Part shown: positions 2,894-20,864 of the stretch, in pieces | How positions within the stretch are numbered: the first letter of the stretch is position 1 | How the letters are laid out: each line of letters opens with the position of its first letter | Virus record (IMG/VR): IMGVR_UViG_3300032260_000017 | Coordinates: 1 to 29,059 of that record | Reading direction: 5' to 3' (one strand) | DNA from: a virus | Taxonomy: Duplodnaviria; Caudoviricetes | DNA length: 29,059 nucleotides | Position numbers and translations under genes: made by a program | Notes under the pieces: generated by a model | Databases searched by the model: none | Seen by the model: only the letters and a program-made list of their open reading frames with translations | Told to the model about the DNA's origin: nothing

Positions 2894-5282
2894 CCACCTC
2901 CTCGCCCAAGGGATGCGCGCCCGAGACCTGGATCTCGATCTCGGCCAGCTCACCCTCATCACCGGCCCGATGGGCTCCTCCAAGACCACCGCCGCGGACG
3001 CCCTCCGGTTCCTGGCGCTGGGCTACGTCCCCGCCCTCGGGAAGGCGGAGGCCGCCACGGCGGCCCTCCTCCGCGGCGGGGAGCTGGGCGTCCGCCTCGA
3101 GCTCGAGGACGGGCGTTCGATGTCCCGCACCCTCAAGCGGACGGGGAAGGGGATCAAGGGGGGCGCCTCCGCCTCCTGGATCGAGCCGAAGGCCAAGGCG
3201 TCCGAGCACGCGGCGGCCATCCTCACCCTGTTCGGGGAGGACGCCTCGGCCACCGCGGAACACCTGGACCTCCGGGAGCTCCTCAAGGCCACCCCGAACC
3301 AGCGGGCCGCCCGCCTCGAGGGCCTCCTGGCCGCCACCGCGTTCGCGCCGGAGGAGACCTTCACGTGGCTCCGGATCTATGCCACGTGCCGCATGGCACG
3401 CCAGGAGCGGATCCCGGACGATCTCACGGCCGCCACGGCCCTCGCGGATGGGCTGGTCCACGGCCTCTCCGAGCCCGAGCGGGCCGCCATCGGCCACGTG
3501 ATCGAGGAGCTCCGCGCGGTGTTCGATGAGCGTGGGCTCTCCGGCGCTCTGGACCAGGCGGGGGACATCCGCCGCACCGAGGCCACGGCCACGAAGCAAG
3601 GCCGCGCCGCACGGACGAAGATCGAGGACCGCCGCGCGGGGATGACGATCCCCACGGACACCATCGAGAGCCTCGAGCGGGCTCGGGACGCGGCCACCGC
3701 GGAACAGGCCGCCCTCGAGGAGCGGGTTCGCGCCTACCGTGGAGGAGCCACCGAGCGCCAAGGCGCCGCGGACGCCCTCACCGAGGCGCGCACCGTGCTC
3801 GAGGCGCTGGCCGAGGGGAACGCGGCGGCCGCCGCCGCTCTCTCCAGGTGCCAGGAGCTCCAGGCCGAGGCCGCCGCCGTGGTGATCCCGGACGCCCTCG
3901 AGGCGCCCACGCTCCCCGAGCTGGATCCCGCTCTCGGTGAGGCGATCCTCGAGGCCGAGCGGCTGGTCCGCGAGCACGCGGGGAAGGGCCTCACGCCCGA
4001 GCCCCAGGCGCCGGACCAGCTCCACCTCGAGGGGACCGATCACCTCGAGGAGGACGTGGCGGAGGCTCGCCACCGGCTGGCGTGCGCCGCGGGTGATCCG
4101 TGGCTCGAGGTGGTCCGGCTGGCGCGTGAGCTCACGGAATGGGCGGACGTGTCCGATGAGGCGGATCCCGTTCGGGACCGTGCCGCGGCGCTCCAGACGC
4201 TCGGCCAGGAGAACGGCCTGGACCAGGCCAAGCTCGAGGAGGCTCTCCTCCAGGCGGGCGCGGTTCTCGAAGCGGCCAAGGGCCGGAACGCCCAGCTCCA
4301 GAGCGCCTACAAAGCCCACGCGGCCGACCACGCCACCGCTCACGCGGCATGGGTGGAGGCCGAGGCGGCCCACGTCCTCGCGGGAGCGCATCTCCAGGTG
4401 GCTCTCGAGGAGGCCCAGGCCAAGCGGTCCACCGCCACCACCGAGCTCTCCCAGGAGCGCCAGCGGATCCTGGACGCTCACGGGGTGGACCTCGAGGCGC
4501 GGGACGCGGCCCAGGCCAAGCGGCGCCAGCTCGAGGAGGACGCGCGCGCCCAGGAGCGGAAGCACCGGGACCACGTTCGCGCCACCCAGGAGGCGGAGAG
4601 CGCCGCGTCCACCGCCCACGCTCGCCTCGAGGGGATGGCCATCCAGGAGGAGGTGGACATCGAGGAGGCCGCCACGGAGATCACCACCCTCGCGGGGAAG
4701 GTGACCGAGGCCCAGGCCGCCATCGATGTCCTCCAGGCGGCGGACGCCCTGGATGGTGAGCTCGGCACGCTCACCGAGGCCCTCGAGCTCGCCACCGTGC
4801 GCCTCGAGGCCGCCAAGGGATGCGAATGGGCGCTCCAGCGCCTCCGGGAGCGGGACCTGGCCGAGCGGGGGAAGCCCCTCACGGACCAGCTCCGCGCGTT
4901 CCTCCACGCGGCCGGGATGGCGGTGGAGCCCTACGTCCGCGCCAAGCCCCGCGCCCTGGACTTCGGGTGGGTGATCGATGGGCCGCCCGATGGAGAGGGC
5001 CTCCCCGCGGACGTGCCCCTCCAGGCCATGAGCGGCGGGGAAACCGTGCTCTACATGGCCGGGATGGCCGCGGCGGTGATCGGCCTCCGCGCGCCGGAGC
5101 TCCGCCTCCTCCTCATCGAGGGCGCGGAGTGCCAGGACCACCTCCGCCAGCTCATGGAGGGGTGTTCCGCGGTCTCCGAGGGTCTCACCCACGCCATCAT
5201 CACCACCCAGGCCGAGCCCGCGGATGGTGTTCCCGAGGGGTGGACCCACATCCGCACCCTCGAAGCGGCTCCCGTCACGTAA
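2886..5282 (+). CDS. SMC/Rad50/SbcC-like ABC ATPase with long coiled coil (798 aa)
   Basis: N-terminal LTLITGPMGSSKTT (Walker A-like), long Ala/Glu-rich coiled-coil-like middle, C-terminal MSGGE signature and LLLIEGAE Walker B-like strand. Start overlaps the upstream stop. Confidence 0.8.
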   Translation: MRSHLLAQGMRARDLDLDLGQLTLITGPMGSSKTTAADALRFLALGYVPALGKAEAATAALLRGGELGVRLELEDGRSMSRTLKRTGKGIKGGASASWIEPKAKASEHAAAILTLFGEDASATAEHLDLRELLKATPNQRAARLEGLLAATAFAPEETFTWLRIYATCRMARQERIPDDLTAATALADGLVHGLSEPERAAIGHVIEELRAVFDERGLSGALDQAGDIRRTEATATKQGRAARTKIEDRRAGMTIPTDTIESLERARDAATAEQAALEERVRAYRGGATERQGAADALTEARTVLEALAEGNAAAAAALSRCQELQAEAAAVVIPDALEAPTLPELDPALGEAILEAERLVREHAGKGLTPEPQAPDQLHLEGTDHLEEDVAEARHRLACAAGDPWLEVVRLARELTEWADVSDEADPVRDRAAALQTLGQENGLDQAKLEEALLQAGAVLEAAKGRNAQLQSAYKAHAADHATAHAAWVEAEAAHVLAGAHLQVALEEAQAKRSTATTELSQERQRILDAHGVDLEARDAAQAKRRQLEEDARAQERKHRDHVRATQEAESAASTAHARLEGMAIQEEVDIEEAATEITTLAGKVTEAQAAIDVLQAADALDGELGTLTEALELATVRLEAAKGCEWALQRLRERDLAERGKPLTDQLRAFLHAAGMAVEPYVRAKPRALDFGWVIDGPPDGEGLPADVPLQAMSGGETVLYMAGMAAAVIGLRAPELRLLLIEGAECQDHLRQLMEGCSAVSEGLTHAIITTQAEPADGVPEGWTHIRTLEAAPVT

Positions 5283-16087: not shown

Positions 16088-17698
16088 GTGACCACCTCCC
16101 CGCCCGATCCCGCCGCCCTCGCCAAGGCCCGCCGCCATGCGGAGCTCTACCTCCTCTCGGCGCTCGGCCGGTTCGATCCGTGGGAGGTGGACGGGGAGAG
16201 CCCCCAGCGCCTCCTCATCCGAGGAGCTCGAGATCACCGCGTCCGGATCTACCGGGGCGGGAACCGCACGGGGAAAACCACCGTGGGCTCCGTGGACTCC
16301 GCTCTCCGGATCTGCGATTGGCACCCGTTCGTAGAGCTCCCCCCTCGAGGCCGGAAGCGCCGCGCCTGGATCGTGGGGGTGGATTGGGAGCACGGGATCG
16401 GGGAGATCATCTGGCCCGAGCTCAAACGGTGGCTCCCCGAGGCCATCCTCCCGCGCCGAAATATCACCTGGTACAAAGCCAAGGACCCCGAGATCCCGAA
16501 GGCGGCCGTGACCACCACCGGCTGGCGGATCGACTTCAAGAGCGCCGAAGCGGGCCGCTCCAAATTCCAGGGCGCGAAGCTGGACCTGGCGTGGATCGAT
16601 GAGGAGGTTCCCGGTGACATCGCGGAGGAGATCCGCGCGCGCCTGGTGGACCGGGGCGGATCCCTCCTGGTGACCGAGACACCCCTGGCCGGTGAACAAT
16701 GGCTCCTCGAGCTCGAGGAGGAGGAGCGGACCCAGGTGGTCACGGCCTCGATGTCGATGGCGGCCCAGGCCATCGTCCAGGACGTGGAGACCGGGGAGCT
16801 CGAGCCCATGCTGGACCAGGACGCGGTGAGCGCCTTCCTGGATGAGCTCCCCGAGAACCAGCGGAAGGTGAGGGACCTGGGGGAGCCCGGAGTCCGGGAG
16901 GGCCGGGTCTACAAGGAATGGAGCCCGCGGATCCACGTCCTGGCGCCGAAGGACGGGGCGCTGGTGGATGCCACCGGCCGGAAGCTCTACCCCTGGCCGA
17001 TCCCTCGAGGGTGGCCCAGGTTCGCGGCCATCGATTTCGGCTACGCCAATCCGTGCGCGGTGGTGGTGTGCGCCGAGGACCCCGCCTCCGGGACGCTCAT
17101 CGCGGAGCGTGGGCTCTACGCCTCGAGCGTCCGCGCCTCGGCCTGGGCTCGGATCCTCAAGGGGGAGCGAGCTCGAGGGCGCCCGCGGTTCCTCCCGAAC
17201 CTGGCCACCCACCTCATCGCGGACCACCAGGCGGACGAACGCGCCGAGCTCATGGCCGCGGGGATCCCCACCCAGCCCGCGCGGAAGGACGTGGTTCCCG
17301 GCCTCGAGACCGTGGAACGCTACCTCCACGTCCGCCCGAGCACCGGCCGCCCGAAGCTCTACGTGGTGGTCTCCCCTCGAGGCTCCCCGTTCCCGAGCCA
17401 CCCGGACGTGGGCCGGATGGACCTCCAGAAACTCGCATGGGAGCTGGGCCGCTACCGCTACCCCGAGCGGGGGAAGGCGAAACAGGACGGCCGGGACCTC
17501 CCCCTCAAGCGGGACGATCACGCGGCGGACGCCCTCCGCTACCTCCTCGCCTACCACGAACGGGTCCGCGGCTCCTGGCGCCTCCCCGCCACGCGCGGCA
17601 CGAAGCGCCAGCCGAAGGTGGCCACGCCCACCCGCGGAGCGGTGTTCGGGGCCTCGAGCGCCTCCGTGGCCGGAACCAGGCGGAAGCCCCGCCGATGA
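16088..17698 (+). CDS. Terminase large subunit
   Basis: GGNRTGKT Walker A, FQGA...AWIDEE Walker B, TETP coupling motif, AIDFGYANP and DDHAADALRY nuclease motifs. Confidence 0.95.
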   Translation: MTTSPPDPAALAKARRHAELYLLSALGRFDPWEVDGESPQRLLIRGARDHRVRIYRGGNRTGKTTVGSVDSALRICDWHPFVELPPRGRKRRAWIVGVDWEHGIGEIIWPELKRWLPEAILPRRNITWYKAKDPEIPKAAVTTTGWRIDFKSAEAGRSKFQGAKLDLAWIDEEVPGDIAEEIRARLVDRGGSLLVTETPLAGEQWLLELEEEERTQVVTASMSMAAQAIVQDVETGELEPMLDQDAVSAFLDELPENQRKVRDLGEPGVREGRVYKEWSPRIHVLAPKDGALVDATGRKLYPWPIPRGWPRFAAIDFGYANPCAVVVCAEDPASGTLIAERGLYASSVRASAWARILKGERARGRPRFLPNLATHLIADHQADERAELMAAGIPTQPARKDVVPGLETVERYLHVRPSTGRPKLYVVVSPRGSPFPSHPDVGRMDLQKLAWELGRYRYPERGKAKQDGRDLPLKRDDHAADALRYLLAYHERVRGSWRLPATRGTKRQPKVATPTRGAVFGASSASVAGTRRKPRR

Positions 17699-17780
17699 AA
17701 TCCGAGCCGCGAGGGCCTGGGCTCTCGAGGTGCTCGAGCTCGAGGGCCTCTCCACCAGGTGCCGGGATCGGCCTCCCCCG

Positions 17781-17893
17781 CCCAACTAGGGAATTCCCCG
17801 AGGCTATTCCCGGCTAATTGGGTGGAAATAGAGGCCCGCAAAGCCCCAGGAATGGCCCTCTCCGGGAGGTGCCGGATTTAGGTGTGAGATAAT
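17781..17893 (+). promoter_or_regulatory. Lower-GC control region: imperfect inverted repeat plus extended -10 (TG-A-GATAAT)
   Basis: cccaactag-ggaat...attcc-cgg-ctaattggg at 17781-17822; TGAGATAAT at 17885-17893, ahead of ORF 17940. Confidence 0.4.
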
Positions 17894-17939
17894 GGGGGGG
17901 ACGCGCGGGCGATAGGCGCCCGCCTCGAGGACCCCCCAG

Positions 17940-18176
17940 ATGACGAAACAGATCAAGCGTGAACCCTGGACCCACATCGCCCGCGGCCCGTTCTGCTACG
18001 GGTGGGGCATGACCCCCGAGGAGGCGGAGGCGAACGCCCGCCGCTCCATCCCCCGCGAGCACCGGAAGGCGGAGGTGGAGGTGTTCGAGATCCCGAAGGG
18101 GACCGAGTGCTCCATCTCCCACGTGGACGGGACGATCTCCTGGAGCGGTGAGGACATCCGGAAGGTGAGGCCGTGA
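17940..18176 (+). CDS. Small hypothetical protein (moron-like, 78 aa)
   Basis: GAGGA SD; YGWGMTPEEAEANA motif; GTGA coupling to the next gene. Confidence 0.75.
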   Translation: MTKQIKREPWTHIARGPFCYGWGMTPEEAEANARRSIPREHRKAEVEVFEIPKGTECSISHVDGTISWSGEDIRKVRP

Positions 18177-18412
18177 GCGGCCCCCAGGTGGAGGAGCTCT
18201 CGGGCTCCATCTCCCGCGAGCTGGTGGAGGGGGGGGCCATCATGGCGGCCCTCCCCGCCCACACGTGCGGGCTCCGTGCCCGGATGGCGGATCCCGAGCG
18301 GCCGGGGTGGTGGACCTGTACCAGGGTCCACGGCCACGATGGGGATCACGTGGCGCACGTGTTCACCTCGGACGGCCCTCGAGCTGTTGCCCGGTGGCCG
18401 GGGCCGGAGTAG
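18173..18412 (+). CDS. Small Cys/His protein (C...CTRVHGHDGDHVAH)
   Basis: GTGA coupling. The C-x-R-x-x-GH-x-G-x-H motif is common in small phage proteins. Confidence 0.7.
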   Translation: MSGPQVEELSGSISRELVEGGAIMAALPAHTCGLRARMADPERPGWWTCTRVHGHDGDHVAHVFTSDGPRAVARWPGPE

Positions 18413-18415
18413 GCT
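18387..18415 (+). promoter_or_regulatory. Sigma70-type promoter TTGCCC-17-TAGGCT for the downstream ncRNA candidate
   Basis: -35 at 18387-18392, exact 17-nt spacer, -10 at 18410-18415. Predicted TSS near 18421 coincides with the 5' strand of the closing stem. Confidence 0.6.
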
Positions 18416-18419
18416 CGGA

Positions 18420-18635
18420 GCGCCGAGTCCTCGAGGACCGGAGGCGGGGCTCCCCTTGGTGGGGGAGCCCGGAGTCCAGAGCGAAGGCCCGCCGCGAGAT
18501 CCAAGCCACCTCCGGGATGGTACGGAAAGCGGCGGGCCGCCCTCACCCTGGAGCGGGGCCGCAAGGCGTACCCCGGTGGTGGCGGATCGAGCCGCGGACC
18601 TAACGCCCGAGGATCACCACCTCGAGGCTCGGCGC
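18420..18635 (+). ncRNA. Unrecognised multi-branched structured ncRNA candidate (~215 nt)
   Basis: 16-bp closing stem, 9-bp and 10-bp perfect internal stems, GCAA tetraloop hairpin, several pseudoknot complementarities, upstream promoter; no credible ORF. Confidence 0.7.
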
Positions 18636-18666
18636 CTTCGATTCGGGCGTTCGGGGTCCGTGGCGT

Positions 18667-18672
18667 TAGACT
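18667..18672 (+). promoter_or_regulatory. TAGACT -10 for a probably leaderless portal mRNA
   Basis: 8 nt before ATG 18681, no SD, preceded by GGCGT. Confidence 0.5.
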
Positions 18673-18680
18673 CGCCCACC

Positions 18681-20864
18681 ATGAGCCGCCGCCATCGCAA
18701 GCGTCCGAACCCCCGCCGCCGCGCGGCCGCTCGAGGCCGCACCATTCGGAACCGCATCGGGGGCCAGCTCAAGCCGGGAGCCTCGGGGGCCTCCGTGGCC
18801 CGCCTCCTCGAGGGCGCCTCCGATGACTTCCTCCGGGACGATGACGATGGGGCCGGGATCTACCAGGGCCGCCGATCCGGCCGCGGTGGTGATGATGCGG
18901 AGCTCACGCCCGAGGAGCGCCGGAAGGCCGTCCAGAACAGCCGCTCCGCGTTCAAGCGTTCCGGGGCCTACGGCGCCGTCCTGGACCGGATCACGGATTT
19001 CGTCCTGGGCGATGGCGTGGCGATAGAGGTGAAGGACGAAGCCACGAACGCATGGCTCCACGATCTCCTCGAGCGCCCGGAGATCGCCTGGGATGAGAAC
19101 CTCCGGAAGCGGGTGAGCCGCCTCCTGGTGGATGGGGAGTTTCTCCTCTCCGCCTACGTCCAGGAGCGAGACCCCGGCCAGCCCTCGGGGAACGTGGTCC
19201 TCGGCCGGATGGACCCCCTCGGGATCTCCGAGGTGACCGCTCTGGCGCTGAATGAGGACCGGCTCCTCACCGTGGAGCTCGATCACGGATCCGGGATCCC
19301 GGCCGTCTGCTACCCGATGGCCGAGGTGGATGGACCGCTCCTCCGCCTGGTGATCGATGACGAAGGGAAGCCCCACCTGGCGCCGCTCGAGGGCGCCGAG
19401 GGCGAGACCGCGCGGGAGCGTTCCCTGGTCCAGCTCGAGAGCCCCGCCGATGTCACCGATGAGGACGCCAGCCTCGAGGACGCCCCCGCGGATCCCGTGG
19501 CCGATGAGCCCGAGCACCCCACCGAGGCCGCCACCGAGGCCGTGGCCGAGGAGGCCGTCCTGGCCGCGGTGTTCCTCTGGCAGATCAATACCCTCGGGAC
19601 GCGCGGAGCTCCCCTCCTCACGCGCCTCCTGGACAAGGCCGCCGTCCTGGATGAGGCCGTGGAGGAGATGGCCCGGAAAGCGGAGTACCTGAATCGCCAT
19701 TGGCTCCACATCGAGTACGAACCGAGCGGAGACCAGGAGAAGGACGAAGCGTTCGAGAAGCGGGCGATGGATTGGGCTACGCAGATGGAACCGGGCGCGT
19801 GCCTGGTGACCGCGAAGCCGAACGGGTCCGGAGGCGTGGAGGTTCACGTCAAGGTGGCGGACCTCAAGGTGGCCGATCAACAGGCCCTTTATGAGATCCT
19901 CCTGGACTACCTCCTCGGCTCCCAAGGGATCCCGCGGATGTGGTTCTCGAGCGGCGGAGACACGAACCGCGCCACGGCCGCCGAACAGGGAACCCCGATC
20001 TTCCGCTCCATCCGCACCCTCCAGAGCTACATCCAGGGCCGCATCCGTGCGGTGGTGGATTGGCTCCTCTGGCTCGGATCGAACGCGGGCGCCCCGGTGA
20101 ACCTGGACGCGGACATCGAAATCACGATGGCCGACGTGGCCAGCCGGGACTCCCTCCGTGACGTGGAGGAGGTGGCGGGCCTCGCCATCGCCCTCCGTGA
20201 GCTGGTGACGAACGGCGCCATCCGGGCCAGCGAGTCCGAGCGCATCCTCCGGAAGGTGCTCAAGGCCAAGTGGTTCGGGGACCTCCTCGAGGAATCGGAT
20301 CCGGACGCGGCCCGCGAAGGTGGCGCCGAGATCCCCGGCCAGCTCGAGGGCGCTCCGGCCCCCGCCGCACCCGCCGCCGCTGGCGAGCTCGAGGGCGTGG
20401 CCGCTGGCCCGCCCGAGGGAACGGCCGCCGCGGAGGAGGGGACCGAACCCTCCACCACGCTCGCCCCGCTCGAGGCGCCGGACGCGGATCCCGCTCACCA
20501 GGAGATGGCCCCGCCCGCCGCGGCCCCCTCGAGCTCCGAGCCCACGCCCGCCGCTGGTGGTGCCGCGAAGCCCTCGGACGCCCTCTGGGCTCCGGGCCAG
20601 ATCACGGCCATCACGGCCCTCATCGTCCAGGTCTCGAAGGCGGAGATTCCCCTCGAGTCCGCCGTGGCGCTCCTGGTGGCGAGCTCGCCTCTCGATGAGA
20701 GCGGCGCCCGCGAGATCCTCGAGCCCGCCGAACCGGAGGAGCCCGAGGAGACCCCCGGCACCCCGCCGCCTCCTGGAGCTCCGCCGCCGCCCCCGCCGCC
20801 CGCTCCTGGTGAGGAGCCCGAGGAGCCCGCCGCCGAGCCGGAGGCCGAACCCGCGGAGGCGTAG
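18681..20864 (+). CDS. Portal protein with acidic insertion and long Pro/Glu/Ala-rich C-terminal extension (727 aa)
   Basis: Position between TerL and the gpF-like gene; ITDFVLGDG, LLVDGE, GIPRMWF..GGDTNRATAAEQGTP portal-like motifs. Confidence 0.85.
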   Translation: MSRRHRKRPNPRRRAAARGRTIRNRIGGQLKPGASGASVARLLEGASDDFLRDDDDGAGIYQGRRSGRGGDDAELTPEERRKAVQNSRSAFKRSGAYGAVLDRITDFVLGDGVAIEVKDEATNAWLHDLLERPEIAWDENLRKRVSRLLVDGEFLLSAYVQERDPGQPSGNVVLGRMDPLGISEVTALALNEDRLLTVELDHGSGIPAVCYPMAEVDGPLLRLVIDDEGKPHLAPLEGAEGETARERSLVQLESPADVTDEDASLEDAPADPVADEPEHPTEAATEAVAEEAVLAAVFLWQINTLGTRGAPLLTRLLDKAAVLDEAVEEMARKAEYLNRHWLHIEYEPSGDQEKDEAFEKRAMDWATQMEPGACLVTAKPNGSGGVEVHVKVADLKVADQQALYEILLDYLLGSQGIPRMWFSSGGDTNRATAAEQGTPIFRSIRTLQSYIQGRIRAVVDWLLWLGSNAGAPVNLDADIEITMADVASRDSLRDVEEVAGLAIALRELVTNGAIRASESERILRKVLKAKWFGDLLEESDPDAAREGGAEIPGQLEGAPAPAAPAAAGELEGVAAGPPEGTAAAEEGTEPSTTLAPLEAPDADPAHQEMAPPAAAPSSSEPTPAAGGAAKPSDALWAPGQITAITALIVQVSKAEIPLESAVALLVASSPLDESGAREILEPAEPEEPEETPGTPPPPGAPPPPPPPAPGEEPEEPAAEPEAEPAEA

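Follow-up and report, generated by a model that had tools for sequence, protein, structure and literature searches.

A 216-nt stretch between the large terminase and portal genes of this phage is non-coding, strongly self-complementary and preceded by a credible predicted promoter. We tentatively favour the reading that this stretch, which lies in an accessory insert, makes a free small RNA from its own promoter, with paired ends, one hairpin and a long rod, and that this RNA binds a protein through purine-rich loops. The candidate is probably an orphan accessory small RNA of the moron type.

The window, that is, the whole stretch of DNA that we analyzed (positions 1–29059), is a single virus record of 29 kb, about 40% complete and with a G+C content of 71%. 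Its plus strand carries replication genes and genes for a large terminase, a portal, a Mu-F-like head protein, a protease-capsid and tail tube proteins (PHROG/Pfam). The terminase-portal interval is 982 bp long and consists of a hairpin-rich gap, two small ORFs and a 268-bp gap containing the candidate RNA; its G+C content (0.70–0.73) is the same as that of the flanks. The features of the region are as follows:

16088–17698, plus strand: terminase large subunit gene, the left neighbour of the insert (phrog_2, E 5.5e-27; Pfam Terminase_6N)
17699–17939, plus strand: first non-coding, hairpin-rich gap of the insert, the third-best folding window of the contig (z −3.5 and −3.4)
17885–17893, plus strand: putative extended −10-like site in the first gap, read from the sequence (TG at 17885–86, GATAAT at 17888–93)
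17893–17938, plus strand: strong leader hairpin before orf78, ending 1 nt upstream of its ATG
17940–18176, plus strand: orf78, encoding a small protein without family assignment (coding score 0.39, in the range of true genes)
18173–18412, plus strand: orf79, encoding a small protein with Cys and His residues, also without family assignment (coding score −0.17, borderline)
18387–18415, plus strand: predicted sigma-70-type promoter TTGCCC-17-TAGGCT, which matches the phage's own TAGnnT boxes and fails a strict consensus scan
18420–18635, plus strand: body of the candidate RNA, 216 nt, delimited by folding statistics, complementarity and the predicted promoter upstream
18420–18436 with 18620–18635, plus strand: closing stem of 16 bp interrupted by one bulge (a start at 18422 would leave 14 bp)
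18447–18470, plus strand: predicted side hairpin of 9–10 bp with the loop UGGU or UUGGUG (pairing probability 0.98; region z −3.4)
18481–18606, plus strand: predicted long irregular rod with about 39 Watson-Crick pairs (helix probabilities 0.9–1.0; z −4.5)
18591–18664, plus strand: alternative long helix of about 21–25 bp (18591–18601 with 18654–18664; 18602–18611 with 18642–18651)
18667–18672, plus strand: TAGACT, predicted −10 box for a portal mRNA without a leader, located 8 nt upstream of the ATG
18681–20864, plus strand: portal gene (phrog_533, E 1.2e-6)

Neither small ORF could be assigned to a family: orf78 gave no PHROG or Pfam match and its Atlas look-alikes were all under 0.9, and the only match of orf79 was itself. 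The Cys/His pattern of orf79 (HTC...WTC...HGH...H) may indicate metal binding; the 3' half of this ORF has a poor coding score. It should be mentioned that the first gap (17699–17939) is a second structured non-coding stretch within the same insert. Judging by the two closest homologues (79–81% identity), which begin with MSRR, the portal start is ATG 18681 rather than the in-frame upstream GTG 18276. The sequence of the candidate RNA is identical in contigs of sequencing runs X2 and X1 (the latter a possible source of the record), so the element is not an assembly artefact; contigs from five runs contained no variants at all, those of runs X3–X5 not reaching the element.

All complementary segments listed in a preceding sequence-only reading were found at their positions and are complementary as described. 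The 226-nt stretch folds at −142.8 kcal/mol, and none of 200 dinucleotide shuffles folded as well (z −6.28); the interior without the closing stem still gave z −3.77 against such shuffles. Among 2,403 sliding 216-nt windows of the contig the element ranked first in composition-corrected folding energy (−4.6 SD), ahead of runners-up at −4.0 and −3.6 SD, and it was also first in energy gain among 240 tiles (tiles up to 26335). The second-best folding window (−4.0 SD) is located at 576–791 and overlaps ORFs. The tested reading frames of the stretch scored from −0.35 to −0.90, below all 84 true coding tiles (the 2nd percentile of true genes is +0.03).

According to the folding model, the favoured ensemble of the closed RNA is dominated by the closing stem, one side hairpin and the long irregular rod. 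All folds predicted for the closed RNA contained the side hairpin. The rod contains purine-rich internal loops, including GA/GA and GAAA/AAGG, and ends in the apical loop UCACCCU (18543–49). The multibranched arrangement proposed earlier (tccag/ctgga, a 10-bp ggcccgccgc stem and a GNRA hairpin) had a pairing probability of 0.00 in the closed 216-nt RNA. The 16-bp closing stem, also part of that proposal, is indeed longer than any other inverted repeat of the contig, but 30 order-5 Markov simulations showed that an inverted repeat of 16 bp within 300 nt is expected about once per 29 kb. Half of this stem is a palindrome, CCTCGAGG, present in 43 copies in the window. What is notable about the closing stem is therefore its position at the predicted transcription start, not its length. 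Hexamer usage in the window (1–29059) is uneven in other respects as well: CCCGGG, GACGTC, GTCGAC, CGATCG, CAGCTG and CTGCAG are absent and CTCGAG occurs 163 times. This usage likely reflects host restriction pressure and could be used for host prediction.

The proposed promoter TTGCCC-17-TAGGCT stands well above chance by the spacing of its TTG, although a strict consensus scan returned no sites. The plus strand contains 18 TANNNT sites, 12 of them in the TAGnnT form, and TTG is rare (42 occurrences in 29 kb). Only three of the 18 sites have a TTG at a spacing of 16–18 nt; the predicted promoter of the candidate RNA is one of them, and the other two precede ORF starts, those of a small ORF near 1530 and of the capsid gene. 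Since six of the 18 boxes (14088, 15456, 18667, 21874, 24820 and 26493) stand 6–8 nt upstream of an ATG, leaderless mRNAs are suggested. Many genes, late ones included, look leaderless with promoters of their own, and U-less hairpins lie immediately upstream of several boxes. From the box-to-ATG spacing, the candidate RNA would begin at about G18422, inside the closing stem by two bases, which agrees with the earlier placement of the start at the first bases of this stem; the stem begins 4–6 nt past its −10 box, and the leaderless ATGs lie 6–8 nt past theirs. One caveat to the promoter call is that the TAG forming the first half of the −10 box doubles as the stop codon of orf79. The terminator scan revealed no U-tract terminators, though a U-less hairpin might serve as one. 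Boxes similar to the −10-like box of the portal gene can be read before the portal starts of three relatives (L002, L005 and L108). Because the portal gene has such a box of its own, it does not need the candidate RNA as a leader.

Homologues of the element were searched for in several collections. BLAST against phages gave 15 short matches, each covering at most 14% of the element, and against plasmids only three short matches; of 401 Planctomycetota genomes, 18 contained fragments of 26–58 nt and nothing longer. A single-sequence covariance model (R1), which is an insensitive tool, found nothing in sets of 151 and 40 genomes or in seven records of portal relatives. Pattern scans of viral contigs, five in all, returned 12, 16, 1, 7 and 55 loci, none of which was a homologue by nhmmer, by R1 (applied to 11 of 12 and 13 of 16 loci of two scans) or by reading, and exact patterns miss covarying homologues.

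Scanning viral contigs with the portal and the terminase as single proteins likewise revealed no close relative. Excluding itself, the portal has 27 homologues, of which the closest (P0002–P0005) share 79–81% and 45–47% identity, and profile scans added distant relatives of 26–50% identity. One portal homologue (P0007, 898 aa) has a C-terminal extension with Pfam PF03496 (ADP-ribosyltransferase), a type of fusion more usual on MuF-type head proteins. Two portal relatives, the only host-linked ones found, are prophages in Planctomycetota genomes, a weak pointer to Planctomycetota as the host.

Eight distinct loci of portal relatives were compared, after the record's own locus (L007), duplicates (L008, L009, L010 and L109), loci with no upstream DNA (L006 and L011) and loci whose upstream DNA was not a terminase gene (L012 and L013) had been dropped. 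Terminase calls in these loci are based on position and reading rather than on a profile scan. Six of the eight, all distant (26–45% portal identity), have at most 51 bp between a terminase-like ORF and the portal and contain no insert, and the other two carry different cargo at this place. In L003 (3436–3800) the terminase-like ORF overlaps at its end with a TAGACT box, which is followed by a structured stretch of about 140 nt, a small ORF and the portal; this stretch has no Rfam match at the gathering level and is not similar by model R1, and it is a positional analogue of the candidate RNA. In L015 (3478–3991), a Planctomycetota prophage, the interval from terminase to portal holds a tRNA-Met(CAT) gene (3586–3660), an 82-aa ORF and a long hairpin with a run of T residues. 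Since relatives lack the insert or carry other cargo, the terminase-portal slot is a variable cargo site and the wider group has a packaging motor that does not depend on this RNA.

Antisense action was also considered. No antisense target was found on the contig, the longest exact antisense match being 13 nt against a background of 12–17. Action on the portal start was rejected, the duplex being weaker than for 73% of 296 random 30-mers. A direct match of 18 nt with the terminase gene (16878) proved to be background: matches of at least this length occur in eight of 107 tiles, and this pair accounts for two of the eight.

Thus, the free-RNA reading is favoured by the non-coding character of the stretch, its first rank in folding, the promoter-like site, the paired ends, the lack of an antisense target and the variable slot. 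It can be hypothesized that transcription would begin near 18422 at the predicted promoter and end near 18635–18640, where no U-tract terminator is visible. The closing stem would join both ends and give a stable, end-protected RNA, expressed independently of the late operon, as morons are. Its partner would be a protein rather than an mRNA, contacting the purine-rich loops of the rod. The reading is weakened by the lack of a homologue and of a terminator-like site, by near strand symmetry, by the TAG shared with the orf79 stop codon and by the fact that windows without any proposed RNA reach −4.0 SD. Of the discrete, tertiary-folded RNA proposed earlier, a promoter-driven structured non-coding RNA outside Rfam is plausible, but a fold with multiple pseudoknots is unsupported.

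The strand symmetry bears on an unlikely but serious alternative, in which nested inverted repeats arose at the DNA level, by local inverted duplication or as the decayed remains of a non-autonomous mobile element, without selection for a function as RNA. Pairing is almost purely Watson-Crick: the rod fold contains one G.U in 77 pairs, compared with a G.U share of 6–19% in folds predicted for 11 RNase P, SRP and 6S RNAs of Planctomycetota; only one of 72 genome tiles has a share as low. The minus strand folds slightly better than the plus strand (−144.1 versus −139.2; z −6.35 versus −6.28), and DNA parameters predict the same fold. This symmetry marks the complementarity as non-random and does not show selection as RNA. 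The orphan status of the element and a closing stem that alone is expected by chance fit the same origin. However, no flanking target-site duplication was seen, no second copy of the element was found on the contig, and no transposase or integrase was present among the 35 ORFs scanned in this 40%-complete record. Moreover, the stem begins at the start predicted by the promoter-like site, and it is the plus strand that has purine-rich internal loops. The A content of unpaired positions is 39%, compared with 29% in tiles, seven of 72 tiles being as high, and these A-rich unpaired segments lean weakly toward a plus-strand RNA.

Equally unlikely is a cis-acting leader or insulator, suggested by the alternative helix at 18591–18664, which the sequence-only reading had missed and whose two strands extend over 18591–18614 and 18640–18664. 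The segment 18587–18670 folds at z −3.8, and in the model the helix competes with the closing stem in read-through transcripts, whereupon the 10-bp stem returns. Transcripts extending beyond about 18675 would then refold into the 10-bp stem and a long 3' hairpin that partly buries the portal start, so that read-through would be damped and the portal made mainly from its own leaderless mRNA. In agreement with this, the alternative fold replaces the closed rod in the predicted equilibrium when the 3' end lies at 18678–18696 or 18720–18756, the 3' helix stops 2 nt short of the portal −10 box, and no terminator-like site closes the RNA. For folding, the 80 nt upstream of this box rank in the top 0.9% of the genome, and the corresponding stretches of two further ATG-proximal boxes in the top 5–6%, but three of the six boxes have ordinary upstream folding. 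The flip is not monotonic with transcript length, reverting at 18702–18714, and is therefore within model error. The difference in accessibility is small, the start being unpaired with a probability of 0.22–0.47 in long transcripts versus 0.34–0.59 in leaderless ones. Besides, an insulator would have no need of a promoter of its own, and most relatives do without the element.

A compact RNA with several pseudoknots, possibly a ribozyme, built on the 10-bp stem (18486–18538) and three loop pairings is distinctly improbable. The three loop matches, of 7, 6 and 5 bp, appeared in only 2.4% of mononucleotide-shuffled loops, but 348 of 774 genomic 33-mers (45%) give three such matches, which places the earlier pseudoknot proposal at chance level. 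One of them, GGUACG/CGUACC, is instead predicted to be a nested helix of the rod. The nested core with the pseudoknot strands left free reaches −103.5 kcal/mol, and adding the three duplexes (−24.3) with no loop penalty gives about −128, compared with −135.1 kcal/mol for the rod fold. The six Rfam matches at E up to 10 include no ribozyme family, which argues against the ribozyme role raised earlier. We regard this model as disfavoured and go no further, because ViennaRNA cannot score pseudoknots and the 10-bp stem, favoured at transcript ends 18540–18580, would form first in transcription, possibly as a kinetic product.

Still less probable is that the stretch encodes a 69-aa protein (GTG 18394 to TAA 18603) and folds incidentally. 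This ORF ends in TAA, a triplet seen only eight times on the plus strand, and the portal frame is likewise open across the region, but the coding score of the 69-aa ORF (−0.43) is under those of all 84 true tiles and it contains 11 rare codons. Its exact sequence is absent from the protein collection, with no homologue at E up to 1 and no Atlas match.

Integron attC sites have R boxes RYYYAAC and GTTRRRY, 55–141 bp apart, together with a paired L box that holds an extrahelical base. We consider it highly improbable that 18598–18671 is such a site or its remnant, the insert having arrived as a gene cassette: these 74 bp hold the sole RYYYAAC...GTTRRRY pair on either strand, CTAAC and GTTAG occur once each in the window, and a matching core TTAGGT lies at 17878–17883 near the insert start, but GTTAGAC is explained by overlap with the portal −10 box, the predicted fold is branched rather than a continuing single hairpin, the L box fits at 1/7 (plus) or 4/7 (minus) positions at canonical spacing and at 6/7 only with swapped spacers, and the stem beyond it pairs at 2/6 positions, compared with 5–6/6 for 27 of the 30 integron-associated sites whose L box is perfect. 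The AAC/GTT triplet and attC anatomy are described in 10.1101/030866, and the presence of attC clusters in phages is reported in PMC9892861. As a separate observation, two cassette arrays (L092 and L093) with 4 and 20 closely similar attC sites, most of 92–93 bp, were found in one Planctomycetota genome (G013), and integron integrases exceeded the cut-off in 41 of 251 Planctomycetota genomes.

Comparison with known RNA families gave no identity. Rfam 15 covariance models produced no match at the gathering threshold in the window and ARAGORN no genes, in line with the earlier statement that the stretch has no signature of tRNA, tmRNA, RNase P, SRP, 6S RNA or introns. The best match by E-value, whalefall-1 (21.8 bits against a cut-off of 37, E 0.004), covers the side hairpin only. 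Twister-, HDV- and T-box-like motifs were also considered and had no Rfam match either. No reverse transcriptase was found among 35 ORFs (Pfam) or 30 ORFs (PHROGs), which bears on RT-associated RNAs such as those of retrons. Bacterial RNase P RNA, recognised by a conserved P4 region and similarity to rnpB, was rejected: the element had no Rfam match, and plus-strand comparisons with four Planctomycetota rnpB gave z from −0.6 to 2.4, with a single minus-strand z of 3.9 among 22 comparisons; model R1 misses rnpB RNAs.

6S RNA, which binds the RNA polymerase holoenzyme and templates short product RNAs, resembles the element in its length of about 200 nt, a long closing stem pairing the ends and an overall rod. 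However, the element has no match to RF00013 at E up to 10, whereas three of five Planctomycetota genomes exceed the cut-off, and its 5' side is predicted to hold a stable hairpin instead of an open central bubble. Local alignment to three Planctomycetota 6S RNAs was not significant (z at most 1.8).

Among phage RNAs, the cabRNA of staphylococcal phages is likewise a structured RNA of the packaging module (PMC10686824). It maps within the terS/terL coding sequence and needs the TerS protein for its proper length, whereas the present element is intergenic with its own promoter-like site. The virus structured-RNA candidates of PMC10690425 are, like it, uncharacterised intergenic phage RNAs, and 'portal' appears 19 times among genes within 25 bp downstream of them in the covered part of that study. 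Those candidates are backed by alignments with covariation, and the element has no homologue found. Its description did not occur in the literature searched, PMC10690425 being covered in part, so that its models may bear on novelty.

The sequence-only reading had also raised a role in packaging or head assembly by analogy with the phi29 pRNA, which binds proheads, forms rings and is needed by the motor of all phi29-like phages. A core role of this kind is unlikely, because six of eight relatives have no insert, two carry other cargo and the portal has its own promoter-like site; the large terminase (phrog_2/Terminase_6N) is an ordinary one. The phi29 RNA is of similar size (174 nt, against about 215 here). 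Its three-way junction with two complementary interlocking loops has a possible counterpart in the junction predicted here, where a closing helix would carry two arms with loops that could pair over 4 bp (GGUG/CACC). Phi29-like phages are described as the only ones known to need a pRNA (PMC5066667). The two arms of the element are, in the model, very unequal in length, and it has no Rfam match. A self-associating packaging accessory, in which the short-arm GGUG of one molecule would pair with the apical CACC of its neighbour to form rings on the prohead, is therefore a very remote prospect. It is a weak reading, derived from the single post hoc observation of the 4-bp complement, which 5% of random genomic loop pairs also show (p about 0.05) and in which G18461 is 95% paired in the model. 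If true, this would extend such RNAs beyond the phi29 group for the first time, and loop covariation in close relatives, if shown, would make RNA-assisted packaging outside phi29-like phages testable.

Phage morons offer a parallel for the insert as a whole. Like them, it is an apparent addition in the late gene region that is absent from relatives and has its own promoter-like site; it differs in having no visible terminator and a G+C content like that of the flanks (PMC3594210). The cargo here would be a putative RNA and two small ORFs of no known family. Alone, an orphan RNA changes little; if transcribed, it would extend the accessory cargo found between the terminase and portal genes of tailed phages by one undescribed RNA.
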